The notes below the pieces were generated by a model. The model was not told the DNA's origin. It worked only from the letters and a program-made list of their open reading frames with translations, and ran no database searches. Below, one piece after another: positions 1 to 13,247 of a DNA stretch of 15,105 nt; the first letter of the stretch is position 1, and every line of letters begins with the position of its first letter. The stretch lies in UHGV virus genome UHGV-0264650. One strand, written 5' to 3'. This DNA comes from a virus. Position numbers and translations under genes: made by a program.

Positions 1-1262
1 CCTTTGTCACCAAGCCGATCAGCTTCCGATTTCTTCTCTTTTTTCTGTTTTTTCGGCTTGTCTACTGGCTTGTCGAATCCGGTAATCGCTCCGTCATTGG
101 CAGCATTCTGTTCATTTTTCCTTGCTTCTTCTGTAGCCTGGATTGCTGCGGTCAGATCATCCTGTAGTTGCATGACCTTGCCAACGGTCTTCCCGTATTT
201 CTTCTCGTAGTTGCTGTTATATTCGTCGGTTTGCTCTCCTACTACCTCCTTCACCCATTTATAGGCGTCCATTAGTGCCTTGATTGGCGTCACCATTGCG
301 ATGATCTTCTCGGCTACCTCGCCAGCCTTGATTCTGACATCTTCAAACATGTCGATGAATTCGCCACCAGCCGTCTTCAGGGTGTTAAAGCAGGTTTTAG
401 CGAAATCAGCGCCTTCACCTAAATCCTTAACAGCTTTCGTTACAAAATCGATACCAGCAACAACCGTATCGGATACACCGAAAAGATCATCCAATTGCTC
501 AACAAGTCCCATAACCTCGACTTTAAGCTCATTCAGGGCCATGCCGGATGTGCGCGGCAACTGCGCAAACTTCTCGTTTGTTTCCTGCGTAGCCGCCTGG
601 ATTGCGTTAACCATCCTTTCTGCCGTGATCTTACCGTCCAGCATTTCGGCGCGGAATTGGCCCATTGATAACCCCATCTGGCGTGCCATTGTCTGTACGA
701 TGGTCGGGGTGTTTTCTAACAGGCTGTTGAATTCTTCAGCGCGCAACACGCCACCGTCGATAGACTGACGGAATTGACGCATTGAGTTTGACATCTGCTC
801 CGCTGACGCGCCGCCCAACGCCCCCATTTTCTGAATCGTACCTACCAGGTTAAGCAATTGCCCTTCCGTAGCGGAGGTGTTTTTTAGTGAGATAGCCAGG
901 CCTTGCCATAATTCGCCAGTATCTTTCAGGCTCTGCCCCGTCTCCCTGGATATTTCTTTCAGACCATCAAAAACCCGCCCGGCAGATTCCGCGTCGCCTG
1001 TAAGCATTTTGATTTTGACGCGTAGCATTTTGGCCTGCTCTGCCATTTCCATAAACTGTCTAACGGCCTCGGCAGCAATTAGCAGATGGATAACCCTGGT
1101 CAGTGCTTTGATTGATGTTTTCAGTGTGTTTACCTGGCGATCGGCCTGTTTAGCACCGCGCTCTATACGGTCAAAGGCCTGGTCTGCCTGTCGTTGTGCT
1201 ACAAGAAGTTGTCCTGTTTTTGCGTCAACTTCGTAATAAATTGTGCCTACACTGGTAGCCAT
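1..1262 (-). CDS. Tail tape measure protein, N-terminal part (gene continues beyond the left edge of the window)
   Basis: Open minus-strand frame from ATG at 1262 (SD GAGG 7 nt upstream) with no stop to position 1. Translation starts MATSVGTIYYEVDAKTGQLLVAQRQADQAF and contains GGVLRAEEFNSLLENTPTIVQTMARQMGLSMGQFRAEMLDGKITAERMVNAI, which matches the conserved tape-measure N-terminal motif as I recall it. Position after tail tube and chaperone fits. Not in the ORF track because no stop lies in the window. Confidence 0.8.
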   Translation of the reverse strand, partial: MATSVGTIYYEVDAKTGQLLVAQRQADQAFDRIERGAKQADRQVNTLKTSIKALTRVIHLLIAAEAVRQFMEMAEQAKMLRVKIKMLTGDAESAGRVFDGLKEISRETGQSLKDTGELWQGLAISLKNTSATEGQLLNLVGTIQKMGALGGASAEQMSNSMRQFRQSIDGGVLRAEEFNSLLENTPTIVQTMARQMGLSMGQFRAEMLDGKITAERMVNAIQAATQETNEKFAQLPRTSGMALNELKVEVMGLVEQLDDLFGVSDTVVAGIDFVTKAVKDLGEGADFAKTCFNTLKTAGGEFIDMFEDVRIKAGEVAEKIIAMVTPIKALMDAYKWVKEVVGEQTDEYNSNYEKKYGKTVGKVMQLQDDLTAAIQATEEARKNEQNAANDGAITGFDKPVDKPKKQKKEKKSEADRLGDK

Positions 1263-1564
1263 GATTTAACCTCATGCAAAATGTGATCTATGTATCTATT
1301 TTATACAAAATGTCTTTATTTTAACGATACCGTTTTGTATAGGTGATGTAGAGAAAGATAGAAGAGATGCAGGAAGGCCGGATGTCCCGGAGGAAGTGAA
1401 AGAGGATAAGAAAATGAGAAACGTAAACTACCGCCCCAACGAATATGAACGCTATGCGAACCTTATCGAAGAAATGTTAAAAACACTTAAAAAATAAACA
1501 ATATGCGTGTATAACTAAGTTAAAGAAAGCATTTAGCAAATCAGAATAATTACAGGGGTTGATT

Positions 1565-1978
1565 ATGAAACGGTTAGCAAAAATGGTGCTTGCTGTGATT
1601 GCTGCACTAGCATTTAACGCTAACGCTAACGAGGCCATAAACATTAACTGTGAAGAAGTGGCAAACCATGTAGCCGCATATCACGACATGATCAAAAAAG
1701 AACCAGCCGCACCCACAATTCTTTTTAAGGCAATTGATAAAAATTTTGAAGGTAAACCAGTTTATGCTCGTTGGTTTAATTATGGCCTTGTAAACGAGGC
1801 TGCTGTAGGCGTAGTCTTTGAAAACAACAGCGAAATAAAAAACAGGATAGCTAACGAGTGTAAAGCAAATAAAGTTGCTTTCGCTGAAAGAATTTTTAAT
1901 GAAGGCGGCGCTGGTGCAAAAAATCACGCAATTGTCGATTTAGGTAACGGTTTTATTGATATTGTTAGAATCAAATAA
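1565..1978 (+). CDS. Moron: secreted/periplasmic protein of unknown function (137 aa) with a cleavable signal peptide
   Basis: Only convincing plus-strand gene. ATG at 1565 preceded by AGGGG SD with 6-nt spacer (the ORF-track start at 1559 is a TTG). N-terminus MKRLAKMVLAVIAALAFNANA-NEA is a typical Sec signal peptide with an AXA cleavage site; the mature part has two Cys. Sits in an AT-rich segment opposite in orientation to the structural operon, behind a ~300-bp AT-rich intergenic region. Confidence 0.6.
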   Translation: MKRLAKMVLAVIAALAFNANANEAININCEEVANHVAAYHDMIKKEPAAPTILFKAIDKNFEGKPVYARWFNYGLVNEAAVGVVFENNSEIKNRIANECKANKVAFAERIFNEGGAGAKNHAIVDLGNGFIDIVRIK

Positions 1979-1993
1979 GACAAACGCCCGGAT

Positions 1994-2671
1994 CTACCGG
2001 ACTTTTTCTTGCTTGCGATTTTCCATTCTTTTTAGCGCCTTTTTAGCGGCCTCCATTTGCTCGTCATAAGCACGTTTATTTATGTGAACATTTGGTCTAC
2101 TTCTTTCATTTCTTTCGTCTGGCGGCGTTTTAGCGCGCACTGCGGCCCTGTATCCGGTCATTGTCATATTCCATGCTTCTGATTCTGACAATCCCAGGTG
2201 AGCAACGGCAGAATAAACAAACTCAAGTACGTCAAATGTCGGCTTGTACTCGCCTTCCTGGATCGCGCCCGTGTCTTCTTCCGGCCCGTCACCAATTAAA
2301 CCGTGGTACATGCAATGTTGCGCCAGCGTGATAACATCACTTGTAGGCATCAGTCCGGGTTTTAGTCTCAATTTACCAGAAGGAGTAAACCTACATTTGC
2401 CCAATAACGGGCCTGTTTCGTCGTCTGAGCAACATTTCAGGATGCGCATTGACGTTTGCACTATCTCACCATAACACCGTGCCATAATGCGATTGCGGAG
2501 GTCTGGATCTGTAGGTAATCGTGAAGGGTATTTGCTGCCGTGGATAAGTGCGAAATATTCGACAAGCTCACTATCGTTGCCGATTTTAGCCATCGCAGCA
2601 AAGCAAGGATTAAACTCATAGCGCTTACCGTTCACCACAGCCGCAAATTGCCCTGTACGAACATGGATCAT
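1994..2671 (-). CDS. Hypothetical protein, possibly a tail assembly chaperone by position (between tail tube and tape measure)
   Basis: ORF-track ORF 1994-2680; the first codon there is GTG, and the ATG at 2671 has an AGGTGA SD 5 nt upstream, so 2671 is the preferred start (MIHVRTGQFAAV...). Function is inferred from synteny only; no recognisable motif. Confidence 0.35.
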   Translation of the reverse strand: MIHVRTGQFAAVVNGKRYEFNPCFAAMAKIGNDSELVEYFALIHGSKYPSRLPTDPDLRNRIMARCYGEIVQTSMRILKCCSDDETGPLLGKCRFTPSGKLRLKPGLMPTSDVITLAQHCMYHGLIGDGPEEDTGAIQEGEYKPTFDVLEFVYSAVAHLGLSESEAWNMTMTGYRAAVRAKTPPDERNERSRPNVHINKRAYDEQMEAAKKALKRMENRKQEKVR

Positions 2672-2683
2672 AGTATTCACCTT

Positions 2684-2726: not shown

Positions 2727-3203
2727 TTATGCTGGCGGAACGTCGCCTACCGTTACCTTGCCAGCGCTTTCGCACTCAATAGACCAGGTGGAAACATCAT
2801 CATGCGGATCTTCTTCTTTAAAGGAAGTGCAAAGGAATGGGCCTTCAGTTACGTCTACAGGAGAAACGATCTTCAGCCATACATAAGGTTGTGATCCGGT
2901 GGTTTCACCTGGCGTAATTACGTGGCGTTTCAGCGCTTTCTGATTATGGATTTCTTCAGTGCGGGACACACCGTCGCCGGAGAAAGAAACGGATTTGTAA
3001 GTAACCATTGATTCTTTCGTGTAATCGGCTGATTTATCGGCGGTGGCGTCAGCGGCTTCCCATTCAACGGAAAGTGTTTTACCACGCATCATGCCTAACG
3101 CTTTGTACGCTCCAGCTTCCAGCTTCGCATTTGGACAAGCGATAGCGAAGAATACAGCAACGTCACGGCCTGTAAACGTGCCTTTTTCGCAAGTCTGAGA
3201 CAT
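2727..3203 (-). CDS. Putative major tail (tube) protein
   Basis: 158-aa ORF with SD AGAGGT 8 nt upstream of ATG 3203. Position immediately upstream of chaperone/tape measure, and followed by a terminator-like hairpin as is common for highly expressed tail tube genes. Family not verified. Confidence 0.5.
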   Translation of the reverse strand: MSQTCEKGTFTGRDVAVFFAIACPNAKLEAGAYKALGMMRGKTLSVEWEAADATADKSADYTKESMVTYKSVSFSGDGVSRTEEIHNQKALKRHVITPGETTGSQPYVWLKIVSPVDVTEGPFLCTSFKEEDPHDDVSTWSIECESAGKVTVGDVPPA

Positions 3204-4066: not shown

Positions 4067-4435
4067 TTAACCCCCTGTCACGATCTTATAATCCGGCGTG
4101 TCGTTAAACATGCTCATATCCCATTCAACGATCCCGGTAATAACGTTGGCCCCAGCCACCAGCGGGTCGGAAATATTAGTGGTGTCGCCAGTGGCAATCA
4201 TCCAGCCGTTTTTCGGGCGCTGCACTGGCTGCATATTATGAAGCAGTTCGGTAAATACGGTTATTGTATTGCTAACCTCATTACCGTTTGTGTCTGTTGC
4301 AGTGCCGTCGGTGCGCTCCCATGCGCAGTTAATCAGGTATGGTGCGCCGTATACGTCGGCGTTTGTCCAGTCGTCATGCGTTACGGGGTAGATGGTGGCT
4401 AATGCCTTGTAACTGAATCGCGCAATCTTACTCAT
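4067..4435 (-). CDS. Hypothetical protein in the head-tail joining module (possible head closure protein)
   Basis: 122-aa ORF with SD GGAGT 7 nt upstream of ATG 4435; overlaps the upstream 63-aa ORF by 8 nt. Confidence 0.45.
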   Translation of the reverse strand: MSKIARFSYKALATIYPVTHDDWTNADVYGAPYLINCAWERTDGTATDTNGNEVSNTITVFTELLHNMQPVQRPKNGWMIATGDTTNISDPLVAGANVITGIVEWDMSMFNDTPDYKIVTGG

Positions 4436-4619
4436 AGCCGTAACTCCAGCTAATAACCTTTGGATGAGTTTTCGCCACGCGCGGGCAAAGAATTACCCAT
4501 AAGCCAGCATCATTGAGGTAGGCCGCCACCTGACGTCCGCTATCCGTTTTAACCCACACGCGGGTAAATAGTTTCGGCAATACTGGATTTGGTAATGTCA
4601 GGTCGTTCCACATTGTCAC
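4428..4619 (-). CDS. Small hypothetical protein (63 aa)
   Basis: ATG overlaps the stop of the upstream gene (ATGA); tightly packed inside the structural operon. No recognisable motif. Confidence 0.35.
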   Translation of the reverse strand: MTMWNDLTLPNPVLPKLFTRVWVKTDSGRQVAAYLNDAGLWVILCPRVAKTHPKVISWSYGYE

Positions 4620-5002
4620 ATCCTCCTGCTCTTACCAATCCACAGCCCGGCGTGCGCGGTGTTTTCTGGATCTGGTGGAATTAGTTCGGCTGTACAATGG
4701 TGTTTGTCCAGTGAGTAAAGCAACGAATAGGCCGCCTTCCATCGCTTATTAAAATCGACATAGCGGTAAGACTGGCTTGCACCGTTCGGACCAGTCTGCG
4801 AGGAAACGTATTTATCAGCCTGGCTGAGTCCTAACAGGCCAATGAGATAAAGCTGAATCAATGTTGCAGTGGAGGACGGATAATTGGCATCAAGGCATTC
4901 ATTAACGCTATTTGCCTGCTCCACCAGCAAAGATAAAACCACGTCTGGTATTTCAATCCCCTGGCTTTCGAGATATTCCCGCGCCTGTTGTGTGGTAACC
5001 AT
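4616..5002 (-). CDS. Putative head-tail connector/adaptor protein
   Basis: ORF-track ORF 4616-5038, but the ATG at 5002 has a GGAGA SD 7 nt upstream and lies just downstream of the capsid terminator, whereas the 5038 ATG sits inside the terminator hairpin with no SD. Product MVTTQQAREYLESQGIEIPDVV... First gene after the major capsid gene, the usual place for the head-tail adaptor. Confidence 0.5.
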   Translation of the reverse strand: MVTTQQAREYLESQGIEIPDVVLSLLVEQANSVNECLDANYPSSTATLIQLYLIGLLGLSQADKYVSSQTGPNGASQSYRYVDFNKRWKAAYSLLYSLDKHHCTAELIPPDPENTAHAGLWIGKSRRM

Positions 5003-5020
5003 TTTGTTTTCTCCACATAC

Positions 5021-5048
5021 AAAAAAAATCCCCGGCATTGCGCCGGGG
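5021..5048 (-). terminator. Intrinsic terminator (likely partial/attenuating) downstream of the major capsid gene
   Basis: On the minus strand: CCCCGGC-GCAAT-GCCGGGG (7-bp GC stem, plus 5030-5048) followed by A then TTTTTTTT (plus 5021-5028), 20 nt after the capsid stop at 5068. Confidence 0.65.
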
Positions 5049-5067
5049 AGCTACAGAAACATATCAA

Positions 5068-6132
5068 TCAGGTATTGCTGCCGTAGACCACTCCTGAACG
5101 ACCTTCCATGTCACGGGTGATTTGCAGACCCTCAGCGGACATGATGCGGAAGTTGTAGTTATCAGTCGGCATCATGCGCGGTAACGGTACAACACCAGTA
5201 GTCATACCAACCAGCGGGGTAATTACGCTACGGCTGCGCTGATAAGCAATGAACTCGTTGCCGGACAATGCATAGCTCTGGCGAATCTCACCAACCGGAG
5301 CGAACGGCATAATGACGCTCAGCACGCTACCGACTACAGCACCATTGACGATGTGCGGACGGGCCAGGTTAGCCATGATCTCAGGCGATACCCACATGAC
5401 GTCGTATTTAGCTACGAAGTTGGCGCGAGCCAGCTTGCCGAACTCACCAACGGTGAAGAAGTCAATGATCTTGTCGAAAACCGCAGTAGTCAGGTCGACT
5501 TTTGCGACGGTTTTTAGTTTAAGCTGCTGGGTGCTTTTGTGGTTTTTAATACCCATAGCTTTATGACCATCAACCACGATGCGATCGTTACCATTCAGGT
5601 AGAACTGGACGCGTGCTTTGTTGAATTTTTTCAGTTTCAGGCGCTGGCTATCCAGGGCAAGGTCGATGCCTACAGTATTCAAGCCCTGAGCGAGACGCCA
5701 GTTAACACCGTAACCAGCCGCGAACATCGGGATCGGGTCGCCATCGCTACCGTATTCGGTGTGATCAAAGCCGTGTGGCGCTTGACCATCCATAGACATC
5801 ACAACTTCATCATTGATGTCACCGGATACGTTGTACATTTTCAGCGTTTTACCGACTGGCAGTACGGTTTGTACACCCATCAGGTCGTTTACGATCTCAA
5901 TACCGATTTCTTCGGTGTTCAGTTCGATGATCTGGTTATCAATTTCTTTCCAGAATTCTCTTGCGAAGCCGCCGACGGCGTTACAGGCCAACATTTCAGC
6001 GGTCATGTTTGCTTTGTTTGCTGCAATCATGGCGTTATGCTGATCGTTGAAGATATTGCGTTGCGCCCACAGTTCTTTCCAATGGCTCTGCATCCGGGAG
6101 TTGGCGGCAAGGTTTTCTTTAGTAAAGTACAT
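5068..6132 (-). CDS. Putative major capsid protein
   Basis: 354-aa ORF with SD GGGGA 6 nt upstream of ATG 6132. Follows portal, F-like and scaffold-like genes, and is followed by a strong terminator. Size and position are typical of a major capsid protein; family not verified. Confidence 0.65.
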   Translation of the reverse strand: MYFTKENLAANSRMQSHWKELWAQRNIFNDQHNAMIAANKANMTAEMLACNAVGGFAREFWKEIDNQIIELNTEEIGIEIVNDLMGVQTVLPVGKTLKMYNVSGDINDEVVMSMDGQAPHGFDHTEYGSDGDPIPMFAAGYGVNWRLAQGLNTVGIDLALDSQRLKLKKFNKARVQFYLNGNDRIVVDGHKAMGIKNHKSTQQLKLKTVAKVDLTTAVFDKIIDFFTVGEFGKLARANFVAKYDVMWVSPEIMANLARPHIVNGAVVGSVLSVIMPFAPVGEIRQSYALSGNEFIAYQRSRSVITPLVGMTTGVVPLPRMMPTDNYNFRIMSAEGLQITRDMEGRSGVVYGSNT

Positions 6133-10273: not shown

Positions 10274-11752
10274 TTAAAATCCGCGCAGGCGTTTAGGTAA
10301 CATAAGACCCATCGCCTGTGGTTGGCTTAATTCAGTGATCCCCCATACCATCGCATCCATACGGTCAGGGGATTTTTTAGCGGTAGCTGGCACATATTCC
10401 ATCATTTGATTTTCCAGCGTGTATAGCTCACCAGTGTGTGCCACCCTTCCTTGTGCATACAGTGCCGATATTGGTTCAGCGCGGGCGAATTTACCTTTAC
10501 TTGCGTGCACCTTAACAATGCGGCCTTTGAATCCGGCATTGCGTAGTGTGGCCTCTGCCATATCACCACCCTGGTTGGTTTCGATAACCATCGCGTCAGC
10601 TTCATGGATGTTGTAGGCGTTCATTGATGCCTGCGCCCAGTCGTTAGGTGACATACGGCCTGAATAGTCGCCATCAACAGAATACTGAGCATTCTTGCCA
10701 CCACCATAAGCGGAACATGCCATGATCCCCGTTTCGTCCGACTCATCAGATGATGTTGTCGCCGGGTCAATGGCTATCACAGTGCGGATTTTCTCCTGCG
10801 TTATCTGCATTCGGTGTGCTGCGGTTATCATTGCTTCAGTCCACAATGCGCCTTCTTCGTCGAATTTACGCGGGCGCTGCATGTACTGGGCTTCAAATGA
10901 CCGTCTGTGCGCCTTCAGTCCGGCTTCATGGGTGTCATTGTGTTTTTTAGGCCATAGCCAGCCGTCCGGCAGGTTGTGAGCGATAGGAATGGCGAACTCG
11001 TTTTCAGGGTACAGATCCCAATAATCCAGGCTGTTGTCGATCTTCACTGGCAGGTTAAGGTGATACCACTTTTCACCACTGCCGCCGCGTAACAGGTAGC
11101 CGGACAAATCATCGTAGTGGATGCGCTGCATGATGACGATAACAGGCGTTGTTTGCACTGCCAGACGCGATGCAAGCGTATCGTTATAGTTGGTGTTCAC
11201 CTGCTTTCTCACCACGTCAGAGTAAGCGTCAGCGGGTTTTAATGGGTCGTCGATGATTAACGCGCCATTAAATCCTGATTCCATGTACCCCGCACGGAAC
11301 CCGGTCACCTGACCAAGTGATGACGTTGCATACACGCCGCCGCCGTATTCGGTCCACCACATCGATTTTGAGTTGGCATCGTTGCGGATCTTCATGGGCC
11401 ACATTGCCTGATAGTCAGGCGTACAGATCATGTTTCTTACAGTCGAGGAGTTGAGTAGCGCCAGGTTGTTGGAATAGGAAACGTGAAGGAATCTTGTGCG
11501 GGGATTTATTGCGAGGGACCGCGCCATCATATTGATAGTCGCGATCATGGTTTTGCCGTACCCTGGGGGAATGTTAATGATGAGTCGGGTTATCTCACCA
11601 TTAATAACGCGTTGCAGTGCATCACGGATGGCTAAATGATGGCCTGAGATTAACATCTTCGTTCCGTTCGCTTGTTTATAGAAGTAGCGATTGAAAAACA
11701 GGCCATCGTTTTCACATTTGGACTGAATAACTCGTTCTTTGATTGTCAACAT
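10274..11752 (-). CDS. terL: Terminase large subunit
   Basis: ORF-track ORF 10274-11758 starts at GTG; the ATG at 11752 has GAGGTG 5 nt upstream and lies 2 nt after the TerS stop. Contains a Walker A-like P-loop (PPGYGKT), a Walker B-like hydrophobic stretch ending in acidic residues (GALIIDDP), and a C-terminal region with conserved acidic residues (VIAIDPATTSSDESDETG) consistent with the nuclease domain. Confidence 0.85.
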   Translation of the reverse strand: MLTIKERVIQSKCENDGLFFNRYFYKQANGTKMLISGHHLAIRDALQRVINGEITRLIINIPPGYGKTMIATINMMARSLAINPRTRFLHVSYSNNLALLNSSTVRNMICTPDYQAMWPMKIRNDANSKSMWWTEYGGGVYATSSLGQVTGFRAGYMESGFNGALIIDDPLKPADAYSDVVRKQVNTNYNDTLASRLAVQTTPVIVIMQRIHYDDLSGYLLRGGSGEKWYHLNLPVKIDNSLDYWDLYPENEFAIPIAHNLPDGWLWPKKHNDTHEAGLKAHRRSFEAQYMQRPRKFDEEGALWTEAMITAAHRMQITQEKIRTVIAIDPATTSSDESDETGIMACSAYGGGKNAQYSVDGDYSGRMSPNDWAQASMNAYNIHEADAMVIETNQGGDMAEATLRNAGFKGRIVKVHASKGKFARAEPISALYAQGRVAHTGELYTLENQMMEYVPATAKKSPDRMDAMVWGITELSQPQAMGLMLPKRLRGF

Positions 11753-11754
11753 AA

Positions 11755-12240
11755 TCACACCTCATCTTCAACTTCCTGGACGATGCGGGCGATCTCTTCT
11801 TTCGTTACTTCAACCCGGACGGGTGCTTCCTCCCTGTTGCCGACGATCTCCTGTGTGACGCGTTCACCATATTTACGCGGTTGCAGTTTTGCCAGTAACC
11901 ACTTGCGCGTTTCAATCATCAGTTGATGGCGGCGGCATTCATCTTTATCAATGTTCTCCGCTGCATCGGCTATATCTATGATTTCATCAGCCAATACCTC
12001 AAACCCTATTTCCTTCGCGCGTATGTACATGTCCGAAAACTCCGGAACATCTCTGAACCATTTAAGGATTGTCGAACGCGTTGGCATACCTGGCATCTTC
12101 GAGATCTTATTAATACTCTTACCGTCCGCCACCAGCTCACAGATCTCTAATGCCTTTTCTTCGGTATAACCATGCGGACGGCCCACCCTTTTTGCGGCTG
12201 GCTTTTTATCGTCAGCCTTCGCCTTTTTCGTGCGGGCCAT
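11755..12240 (-). CDS. terS: Putative terminase small subunit
   Basis: 161-aa ORF directly upstream of and translationally coupled to TerL. Basic N-terminus (MARTKKAKADDKKPAAKRVGRP) followed by a helix-turn-helix-like segment, acidic C-terminus. SD GAGGTG 4 nt upstream of ATG 12240. Confidence 0.7.
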   Translation of the reverse strand: MARTKKAKADDKKPAAKRVGRPHGYTEEKALEICELVADGKSINKISKMPGMPTRSTILKWFRDVPEFSDMYIRAKEIGFEVLADEIIDIADAAENIDKDECRRHQLMIETRKWLLAKLQPRKYGERVTQEIVGNREEAPVRVEVTKEEIARIVQEVEDEV

Positions 12241-12721: not shown

Positions 12722-12729
12722 ATATTCAC

Positions 12730-12798
12730 CTATTGAGTCAGCGCGGTCATGGTAAGAACAATCGCAACGATCAGGAAAAAGAAATCAAGCCATTTCAT
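12730..12798 (-). CDS. Mini-ORF 6 of array: 22-aa hydrophobic peptide MKWLDFFFLIVAIVLTMTALTQ
   Basis: ATG 12798 overlaps the TGA stop of mini-ORF 5 (ATGA); SD GGGAG 8 nt upstream. Confidence 0.35.
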   Translation of the reverse strand: MKWLDFFFLIVAIVLTMTALTQ

Positions 12799-12860
12799 TT
12801 TTTAAACTCCCGATAAACATCTACGGCAATGACTACAACTACAGCCACCAGCAATAGCAT
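12795..12860 (-). CDS. Mini-ORF 5 of array: 21-aa hydrophobic peptide MLLLVAVVVVIAVDVYREFKK
   Basis: ATG 12860 lies 1 nt after the stop of mini-ORF 4 (TGA-G-ATG); weak SD, so expression would depend on coupling. Confidence 0.25.
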   Translation of the reverse strand: MLLLVAVVVVIAVDVYREFKK

Positions 12861-12861
12861 C

Positions 12862-12969
12862 TCATATGCGTTCATTGACACTACCTATAACCAGACCAAT
12901 GATGATAATTACGGCTACTACGCCCAACATCATTCCGCACATAATAGCCAGTAGTTCGAATATATCCAT
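12862..12969 (-). CDS. Mini-ORF 4 of array: 35-aa hydrophobic peptide MDIFELLAIMCGMMLGVVAVIIIIGLVIGSVNERI
   Basis: ATG 12969 with SD AGGTGA 4 nt upstream, overlapping the TAG stop of mini-ORF 3. This is the C-terminal part of ORF-track ORF 12862-13074, whose N-terminal half is a read-through of intergenic and other-frame sequence. Confidence 0.4.
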   Translation of the reverse strand: MDIFELLAIMCGMMLGVVAVIIIIGLVIGSVNERI

Positions 12970-12977
12970 GCAGTCAC

Positions 12978-13052
12978 CTATACAACATTTTTCCACCAGA
13001 AATAGATAATGACGGCGACCAACGACCACCAGATAGGACCGTAAATATTCAT
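12978..13052 (-). CDS. Mini-ORF 3 of array: 24-aa hydrophobic peptide MNIYGPIWWSLVAVIIYFWWKNVV
   Basis: ATG 13052 with GAAGG 8 nt upstream; Trp-rich single hydrophobic segment. Confidence 0.3.
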   Translation of the reverse strand: MNIYGPIWWSLVAVIIYFWWKNVV

Positions 13053-13130
13053 GGTGAATACCTTCAGCTTTCAATGAATATCATGATCGCCAGCCATACA
13101 GCGACGCATAAAGAAAGGATAACGAGCGGG

Positions 13131-13247
13131 TCAATCATCTCGCCCCTCCAACCAGTGCTTGATCTTTGCGTTTATTAGTGCAACTGCAATAAAACCCACC
13201 AGATATACAGAAATGCCGATCAATCCGGCAATGATATAATCATCCAT
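13131..13247 (-). CDS. Mini-ORF 2 of array: 38-aa membrane peptide MDDYIIAGLIGISVYLVGFIAVALINAKIKHWLEGRDD
   Basis: ATG 13247 with GGTGA 8 nt upstream (the SD lies in the last codons of mini-ORF 1). One hydrophobic helix followed by a charged C-terminal tail. Confidence 0.35.
   Translation of the reverse strand: MDDYIIAGLIGISVYLVGFIAVALINAKIKHWLEGRDD

Follow-up and report, generated by a model that had tools for sequence, protein, structure and literature searches.

Organisation of the tape measure/DUF6246 junction

The DNA analysed here, referred to as the window, is the whole 15,105-nt stretch of the virus genome UHGV-0264650. It carries the minus-strand late module of a temperate siphophage, in which the terminase (10274-11758), portal and capsid (5068-6132) genes are followed by the tail genes. 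The region was 88.7% identical to Escherichia phage MagusPhagus, its tail genes were 78-85% identical to those of phages mEp021, mEp044, mEp554, mEp515 and mEp013, and prophages from five complete E. coli genomes matched it at 89-93% identity. The window belongs with the mEp021-like (mEpimmI group) temperate siphophages of E. coli. The following features were located in and around the tape measure/DUF6246 junction:

1-1262, minus strand: N-terminal 420 codons of the tape measure gene (PF20155 TMP_3, E 2.6e-50; PHROG 1538)
1263-1993, no strand: AT-rich cassette slot of 731 bp, GC 0.369, at the tape measure/DUF6246 junction
1302-1312 and 1331-1341, no strand: inverted repeat identified in an 11-locus alignment, arms TATACAAAATG and CGTTTTGTATA with an 18-nt spacer
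1315-1343, plus strand: promoter-like site by consensus match, -35 TTTATT (1315-1320), 17 nt, -10 TATAGG (1338-1343)
1414-1497, plus strand: small ORF of 27 aa, MRNVNYRPNEYERYANLIEEMLKTLKK, with the RBS GAGGA at 1402-1406
1487-1515, plus strand: second, cargo-proximal promoter-like site, TTAAAA, 17 nt, TATAAC (9/12 consensus positions)
1565-1978, plus strand: cargo gene of 137 aa, assigned from the ORF, substitution pattern, signal peptide and AF2 model
1615-1631, plus strand: hexanucleotide repeat TAACGC x 2.8 (TRF), encoding NANAN of the signal peptide c-region
1986-2010, plus strand: predicted intrinsic terminator, hairpin at 1986-2002 (GCCCGG-ATCTA-CCGGAC) and T-run at 2003-2010 (TTTTTCTT)
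1994-2680, minus strand: DUF6246 gene of 228 aa (PF19759, E 3.5e-54; PHROG 791, no assigned function)
2727-3203, minus strand: tail tube (major tail) gene (PF06199; PHROG 853)

The tape measure gene starts at 1262-1260, with the RBS GAGG as the reverse complement of 1270-1273, and extends past the left edge of the window. A preliminary description of this DNA had reported an AT-rich segment of about 730 bp between the tail chaperone position and the tape measure gene. The segment itself was confirmed, with a GC content of 0.369 in the slot versus 0.505 in the tape measure flank and 0.472 in the DUF6246 flank, and a deviant slot composition was also seen in 10 other loci. The naming of the neighbour fared less well. 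The DUF6246 gene does occupy the tail-assembly-chaperone position between the tail tube and tape measure genes, but the chaperone label is putative, its basis being that position alone. Its homologue in mEp021, gp62, is annotated as a 'hypothetical protein', and several adjoining genes are annotated as 'virion structural protein'.

Coding capacity of the slot

The cargo gene begins with an ATG at 1565, downstream of AGGGG at 1554-1558, and its stop codon ends at 1978. Besides the small ORF at 1414-1497, it was the sole credible gene in the slot. Comparison with the mEp021 homologue (72% amino acid identity) revealed 21, 18 and 73 substitutions at codon positions 1, 2 and 3, respectively, with a dN of 0.17 and a dS of 2.38. 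For MagusPhagus the corresponding values were 0.016 and 0.21, and dN/dS was about 0.07 against closer relatives. The codon-position bias and the low dN/dS bear out the plus-strand gene proposed in the preliminary description and, as substitution patterns, indicate that it is truly coding and under purifying selection.

Alternatively, the slot might encode no protein on the plus strand, but a tail gene on the minus strand or an extension of DUF6246 reached by read-through or frameshifting. A 106-codon antisense ORF (1607-1927) indeed lies in the same frame as DUF6246 and was considered as such a tail product. However, all three antisense frames hold stops, both in the window and in relatives, and the changes in them are mostly non-synonymous, with 4 synonymous versus 78 non-synonymous changes in the DUF6246 frame. 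Because of these stops and this ratio, the antisense ORF was judged an artefact and DUF6246 was considered to have no read-through or frameshift extension. A conserved frameshift extension, such as the programmed -1 frameshift product of gpG/GT-like tail assembly chaperones, is not possible either, since the sequence downstream of DUF6246 differs between cargo alleles and the extension would be wholly different from one allele to another. This alternative is thus refuted and retains practically no probability.

Predicted properties of the cargo protein

The features of a Sec signal peptide were checked heuristically against the criteria for signal peptidase I substrates, i.e., a positively charged n-region, an h-region of 7-15 residues, small residues at -3 and -1 and no lipobox Cys. 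The first 21 codons (nt 1565-1627) encode an n-region MKRLAK with a charge of +3, an h-region MVLAVIAALAF of 11 residues with a mean Kyte-Doolittle value of 2.95, and a c-region NANA with A at both -3 and -1, giving a predicted cleavage site ANA|NEA. No Cys was present at +1 of ANA|N, so that the protein has no lipobox, and the heuristic scan detected no second hydrophobic segment beyond the signal peptide. By this heuristic, the product is predicted to be a typical Sec/signal peptidase I substrate, as the preliminary description had proposed along with the cleavage after ANA. The mature protein would comprise 116 aa (12.8 kDa, pI 6.3). Its two cysteines, likewise pointed out earlier, are C29 and C99 (mature positions 8 and 78), and they were invariant in 16/16 aligned family members. 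The hexanucleotide repeat that encodes the c-region varied in copy number among homologues, with one additional NA in P0003 and two in P0004, and the same NA-copy variation was found in P0024, a member of the probably unrelated 165-aa cargo family.

The AF2 model of the 137-aa protein (pLDDT 85, pTM 0.83) showed five helices and a C-terminal beta-hairpin past the signal helix. The protein had no match in Pfam, PHROG, NCBIfam, PADLOC or the PDB sequences, and the PADLOC-DB defence HMMs matched neither this protein nor six alternative cargos. The 17 clusters returned by a search of 5.8 billion proteins came exclusively from E. coli or Caudoviricetes metagenome bins and were 71-99% identical. Apart from the family itself, an exhaustive phmmer search of 1.84 billion representatives retrieved only two large repeat proteins, whose EF-hand-like units aligned with residues 37-73.

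Membership in the EF-hand family was examined and rejected. The loop of an EF-hand spans 12 residues, of which those at positions 1, 3, 5 and 12 are ligands, the last being Glu, and EF-hands are usually paired, whereas the corresponding loop D58-K-N-F-E-G-K-P-V-Y-A-R69 has R, T or K at position 12 throughout the family. No EF-hand Pfam match was obtained for the 137-aa protein, and no EF-hand was found among its fold matches. Since the loop has no Glu at position 12, the similarity was judged to be a degenerate helix-loop-helix resemblance. The homology and structure search of the mature domain suggested in the preliminary description came back empty: outside its own family, neither sequence nor fold relatives of the domain were found, and the 137-aa protein did not resemble known immunity or inhibitor folds.

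A conserved slot with exchangeable cargo

To place the insert among relatives, IMG/VR was scanned with the DUF6246 protein and the distance to the next long ORF was measured. The close set comprised 46 IMG/VR loci with a DUF6246 at least 69% identical and a readable junction, and the distant set 19 IMG/VR loci with a DUF6246 26-41% identical. All 46 close loci contained a gap of 640-1275 nt with a GC content of 0.37-0.41 and opposite-strand ORFs. In the 19 distant loci, DUF6246 was only 0-77 nt away from the next long ORF, which was a PF20155 TMP_3 tape measure in four of the five distant loci tested. Full occupancy in the close set and the short distances in the distant set point to an ancestral junction that was contiguous and an insert that is lineage-wide, in agreement with the earlier statement that these genes normally adjoin. 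A few distant DUF6246 phages carried independent same-strand inserts at this junction, encoding lipoproteins and an Ail/Lom outer-membrane protein.

The cargo in the slot was compared across 11 annotated loci and the 46 IMG/VR loci. Among the latter, the cargo types were distributed as follows, some slots carrying two cargos:

VasI/TagO-like lipoprotein (PF11319, E 1e-15): 17/46 loci
137-aa secreted family, the cargo of the window: 15/46 loci
BamE/OsmE-like lipoprotein of 124 aa (weak BamE/OsmE match): 10/46 loci
100-aa protein with two TM segments: 9/46 loci
106-aa protein without a signal peptide: 7/46 loci
Secreted protein of 116-119 aa: 5/46 loci
Secreted protein of 165 aa: 1/46 loci
Lipoprotein of 245 aa: 1/46 loci

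The RBS and the first ~16-26 codons (MKRLxK...A[FV]NANA) were common to unrelated cargos at both the DNA and the protein level. When the 137-aa, 116-119-aa and 165-aa secreted families were compared by hhalign, they matched in the signal peptide and at the first Cys only. AF2 modelled the 165-aa family (pLDDT 73) as a helical bundle, four of the helices being long and the fifth short, unlike the five helices and hairpin of the 137-aa family. The evidence leans towards the three secreted families being unrelated rather than diverged alleles of one family, and, judged from these alignments, mature domains appear to have been swapped behind a constant export signal.

Of 5426 complete E. coli genomes, 8 contained the 137-aa family, in each case as a single chromosomal copy in the slot, and among 50,697 phage records it occurred in MagusPhagus, mEp010 and mEp021 only. 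All homologues examined in their genomic context sat in the same slot, and the 5426 complete E. coli genomes held no chromosomal homologues outside the slot of this phage group. Carriers included human, cattle, deer, bird and food isolates, STEC and O157 strains among them.

Fixed joints of the slot

The 5' hallmark of the slot was the 11-nt inverted repeat, which was invariant across the 11-locus alignment, although its right arm reads CATTTTGTATA in most relatives versus CGTTTTGTATA in the window. Both arms (at most one mismatch each) were present in 46/46 IMG/VR loci, with the core pair 18 nt apart, and a third copy was found upstream in seven of these loci. A role of the repeat as an RNA hairpin or terminator was tested and rejected, the folding z-scores being -0.7 and -1.5 and no T-run being present. 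As the arms are invariant, covariation does not separate a DNA role from an RNA role. Scanning the window against Rfam and for tRNAs gave no hits.

A standard promoter scan found no strong promoter in the slot. The promoter-like site lying between and over the repeat arms is degraded in the window (7/12 consensus positions), whereas its version in most relatives reads TTTACT or TTCACT, 17 nt, TATAAA (9/12). The cargo-proximal site has no T at position 6 of the -10 and lies in a lineage-specific 67-nt spacer common to the window, PAR, LSU61 and MagusPhagus. From their match to the consensus, both sites are putative promoters.

The small ORF, 27-29 aa long, was detected in 9/11 aligned loci and 30/46 IMG/VR loci, including 15/15 IMG/VR loci that carry the 137-aa cargo family. 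Its pairwise differences at codon positions 1, 2 and 3 numbered 88, 14 and 226, respectively, and the mEp021 and mEp044 versions contain an in-frame 3-nt indel. This codon pattern and the in-frame indel argue for a real small gene. A tblastn search with the 29-aa ORF gave matches in mEpimmI phages only. The upstream region of about 300 bp that the preliminary description had assigned to the cargo gene is thus present, but it is not anonymous, as it is made up in part of the inverted repeat (1302-1341) and the small ORF.

At the 3' joint, the GCCCGG-loop-CCGGGC hairpin with its T-run was kept in 8/8 aligned loci irrespective of the cargo, and the stop codon of DUF6246 (1996-1994) is located inside the terminator loop. 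In the window, one G-to-A change weakens the 3' arm. No T-run follows the hairpin on the late strand, so late transcription should read through it.

The 11-nt motif in the phage genomes

The motif of the repeat arms, TWTACAAAATG with at most one mismatch, occurred in 12 copies in the 50-kb mEp021 genome versus 1.7 expected. Ten of these copies were non-coding, non-coding sequence making up 12.6% of the genome (binomial P 5e-8), and when the non-coding mEp021 sequence was shuffled, 0.28 copies were found on average and never more than 4. The motif was located 2 nt upstream of the -35 of a near-consensus promoter-like site, TTGACT-17-TATATT, upstream of gp16/gp17, which is presumably the early rightward promoter. 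Copies in mEp021 also flank a terminator just ahead of the boxA-like sequence GCTCTTTAAAAA, which may be nutR2.

The register of the promoter-like site in the slot (motif, 2 nt, -35, 17 nt, -10) was the same as that upstream of gp16/gp17, and it recurred ahead of another counter-oriented tail-module island in mEp021 and MagusPhagus. In MagusPhagus, a motif copy or a close variant lay at the 5' edge of 4/4 counter-oriented tail-module islands. In mEp021, the motif was present at the slot and at the gp68 island, and the gp74 island had 2-mismatch variants only. The motif may bind a regulator, act as an UP-like promoter element or serve as a linker in recombination.

The slot may be more than a site of insertion, namely a regulated cassette system for envelope effectors, in which one phage regulator would govern all islands and mature domains would recombine between fixed joints. 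The motif shared by the slot, the gp16/gp17 site and the islands would put the islands under that one regulator; the repeat with the small ORF, the signal-peptide start and the terminator would serve as recombination joints for new domains, and any captured domain would automatically be expressed and exported. This proposal is speculative, and we consider it rather unlikely.

Moron character and comparison with known systems

Several features recommend segment 1263-1993 as a moron cassette in the tail operon. It is extra DNA between genes that are adjacent in relatives, as the 46 close and 19 distant loci show, and its base composition deviates from that of both flanks. It has its own predicted terminator, weakened by one mismatch in the window copy, and sites weakly matching a promoter (TTTATT-17-TATAGG and TTAAAA-17-TATAAC), the TATAAA sites of the relatives being better matches. 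The opposite orientation and a predicted exported product under purifying selection are further traits of this kind. A moron assignment is supported by these sequence features, and to this extent the earlier interpretation of the insert stands. The insertion is not a sporadic one, as the slot was always occupied in the close set and its cargo varied. By sequence comparison, the insert is one allele of a conserved polymorphic slot with fixed joints and exchangeable cargo.

The first element to be called a 'moron' was HK97 gene 15, located at the chaperone/tape measure junction, and its product is a superinfection exclusion protein expressed from the prophage with a specificity that depends on the incoming tail (PMC3594210). 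The window element resembles gene 15 in the junction itself, in being extra DNA of deviant composition, in an envelope product (predicted for the window) and possibly in having its own expression signals. It differs in its orientation on the opposite strand and in belonging to a polymorphic cassette with fixed joints. Moreover, gp15 is a small inner-membrane protein related to YebO, whereas the window protein is predicted to be periplasmic with a cleaved signal; no homology to gp15/YebO was found, the protein having no Pfam, PHROG or NCBIfam match and no TM anchor.

The exclusion lipoprotein Ltp of phage TP-J34 is cited in PMC3952083 as targeting the tape measure, and mEpimmI phages carry tested Lpp exclusion lipoproteins in their structural cluster (PMC11893012). 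Like Ltp, the Cor/Llp-type proteins and the mEpimmI Lpp proteins, the window gene is a prophage moron in or beside the tail genes with an envelope-exported product (export being predicted for the window). Unlike the Lpp type, its protein has no lipobox, its locus is another than that of the Lpp genes, and its type does not track the receptor. A further likeness, in small size and predicted Sec export, is to T4 Spackle (gp61.3) and P1 Sim. These are small Sec-exported periplasmic proteins of a resident phage that block a post-adsorption step, and Spackle is helical and disulfide-bonded. The lambda lom/bor and P2-like TO regions, in turn, carry different AT-rich cargo genes at a fixed position in different relatives. 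The window slot has the same fixed position with varying AT-rich cargo but differs in that its joints are themselves conserved functional elements, namely a promoter-like site set in an inverted repeat, the small ORF, the common beginning of the signal peptide and the terminator.

Possible function of the cargo

The preliminary description had listed virulence, serum resistance and exclusion as possible roles of the product; neither the sequence nor the predicted fold points to any one of them. In the expression model considered here, the cargo gene would be transcribed against the late operon, mainly in the lysogen, from its own weak sigma-70-type promoter or promoters. The 137-aa precursor would be exported by Sec and cleaved after ANA, and oxidation of C29-C99 by DsbA would yield a 12.8-kDa helical periplasmic protein acting on the cell envelope. 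The weakness of the promoter-like sites in the window and the G-to-A change in the terminator stem speak against this model and the exclusion function attached to it.

By analogy with known morons, the cargo may exclude superinfecting phages while their DNA is being delivered, at the periplasmic or inner-membrane stage, a tentative reading to which we give somewhat less than an even chance. In the manner of HK97 gp15, P1 Sim and T4 Spackle, the protein would act against the incoming tail tip, the tape measure or a muralytic step. Exclusion at the periplasmic stage is favoured because of the junction shared with HK97 gene 15, the tape measure as the target of Ltp and the mostly envelope-directed cargos of the slot. 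The independent inserts of distant DUF6246 phages, with their lipoproteins and Ail/Lom protein, are a further precedent.

Relations between the cargo and its phage background were also examined. No correlation was found between cargo type and outer-membrane receptor: mEp021 (OmpA) and mEp010 (LamB) carry the same cargo family, and mEp515 (OmpA) carries another (receptors from PMC11893012). Such independence from OmpA or LamB usage speaks against exclusion by receptor masking. Tape measure identity was 88% between phages with the same cargo versus 74% between those with different cargos. DUF6246, too, showed 88% versus 83% in these comparisons, so the association of cargo with the tape measure is confounded by linkage and ancestry. 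The tape measure type of ~780 aa was found with at least four cargo types, which does not favour exclusion, and neither does the tested exclusion lipoprotein that the mEpimmI phages already carry elsewhere (PMC11893012).

A somewhat less probable reading is that the cargo serves host fitness or virulence, protecting or modifying the envelope from the periplasm in a way unrelated to phage exclusion. It might be, for example, an inhibitor of foreign muralytic enzymes (lysozyme, T6SS or colicin effectors) or a stress-protective or colonisation factor. Such a role would suit the company that the gene keeps, since other cargos of the slot resemble envelope-homeostasis or T6SS-associated lipoproteins (the VasI/TagO-like and, weakly, the BamE/OsmE-like proteins), and an Ail/Lom protein, of a classical serum-resistance/adhesion family, sits at the same junction in a distant lineage; the range of carrier isolates, with STEC and O157, also fits. 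The distribution of the 137-aa family argues the other way, as it is restricted to this phage group and to the slot, and the protein has neither chromosomal homologues nor similarity to known immunity or inhibitor folds. An accessory role in the lytic cycle is clearly less probable still. The protein would then be made after induction and would, in the periplasm, aid the timing of lysis or stop progeny from adsorbing to or injecting into lysing cells. The 11-nt motif 2 nt upstream of the gp16/gp17 -35 and beside the possible nutR2 would fit co-regulation with early lytic genes, but a freely exchangeable cargo and a dispensable small ORF are unlike a core lytic function, and late transcription should interfere with a gene that faces the late operon head-on.

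Significance of the slot

As a moron, the window element is ordinary. The orphan exported family, the architecture of a constant signal peptide and a variable domain, the small conserved ORF and the phage-wide 11-nt motif are not described elsewhere, and the literature searched contained no description of the 137-aa protein or of the motif. The same predicted expression and export signals are followed, in one phage or another, by at least seven unrelated envelope proteins, which makes the slot a comparative system for what prophages gain from periplasmic or lipoprotein cargo beside the tape measure gene. The repeated motif offers a handle on the transcriptional wiring of accessory islands in the mEpimmI phages. 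Should the cargos prove to be exclusion factors, they would include several new inhibitors that act on DNA delivery at the periplasmic stage; otherwise, they would represent new functions of lysogenic conversion in E. coli, both pathogenic and commensal.

Sequence motif at the 5' side of the cassette

The arms of the inverted repeat at the 5' side of the moron cassette carry the 11-nt motif TWTACAAAATG, which was found to be strongly over-represented in mEp021, with 12 copies (at most one mismatch) against 1.7 expected, 10 of them located in non-coding DNA (P = 5e-8).

Sites of TWTACAAAATG
Window: 1302-1341
mEp021 (L011): 2376, 6063, 7725, 11925, 20076/20144, 37647/37676 and 42050
MagusPhagus (L021): 18 sites

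The motif lies 2 nt upstream of the -35 element of a promoter-like site 5' of gp16/gp17, which is presumably the early rightward promoter, and it also adjoins a boxA-like sequence that may correspond to nutR2. No description of the motif was found in the searchable literature. The tail module of mEp021/MagusPhagus is broken up by three or four counter-oriented islands, the cassette slot included, and in MagusPhagus every such tail-module island has a motif copy or a close variant at its 5' edge. The contents of the other islands include a ParE-like toxin-antitoxin component, an antirepressor-like gene and an Lpp exclusion lipoprotein.

Other counter-oriented islands
mEp021 (L011): 40127-41976 and 42877-43906
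MagusPhagus (L021): 12727-13137, 19661-20437 and 21257-21978

Shared leader region and exchangeable cargo genes

Two features of the slot recur with different cargos, a small upstream ORF and the start of the cargo gene itself.

Features of the cassette
1414-1497, plus strand: conserved, non-hydrophobic small ORF of 27-29 aa with a strong RBS
1615-1631, plus strand: in-frame hexanucleotide repeat TAACGC, coding for the signal-peptide c-region NANA

The small ORF product reads MKNVNYRPNEHERYADFIEEMLKALKNKN in most relatives, and its substitutions by codon position (88/14/226) follow a coding-type pattern; in annotations it was mostly missed or the opposite strand was called instead. A comparison of window positions 1554-1640 with the related loci L005 (1761-1890), L007 (1712-1840), L010 (2084-2210) and L018 (3971-4100) revealed that, at the DNA level, the window family, 165-aa and 119-aa secreted proteins and a TagO-like lipoprotein have in common their RBS as well as the initial ~16-26 codons. 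The mature domains of these cargos appear unrelated, and the common start suggests a recombination joint within the signal-peptide coding region. The TAACGC copy number varies among homologues of the window protein (one or two extra NA in P0003 and P0004) and likewise in the apparently unrelated 165-aa family (P0024). This suggests that slippage occurs around the cleavage region and leaves the reading frame unchanged.

In the window lineage, point changes weaken two elements: the cassette terminator stem at 1986-2002, where CCGGGC has become CCGGAC, and, upstream, the -10-like hexamer at 1338-1343, where TATAAA has become TATAGG. The coding sequence is intact.

The DUF6246/tape measure junction

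For the DUF6246 gene, which occupies the tail-assembly-chaperone position, no conserved -1 frameshift product was found. A few distant DUF6246 phages carry same-strand inserts at its junction with the tape measure gene, encoding an Ail/Lom-family outer-membrane protein and lipoproteins.

Gene and inserts at the junction
Window 1994-2680, minus strand: DUF6246 gene
L094: insert 4164-4709
L072/L074/L080: insert 4246-5064
L096: insert 4161-4625

Since these distant phages have inserts at the same place, the DUF6246/tape measure junction is a recurrent moron site across lineages.
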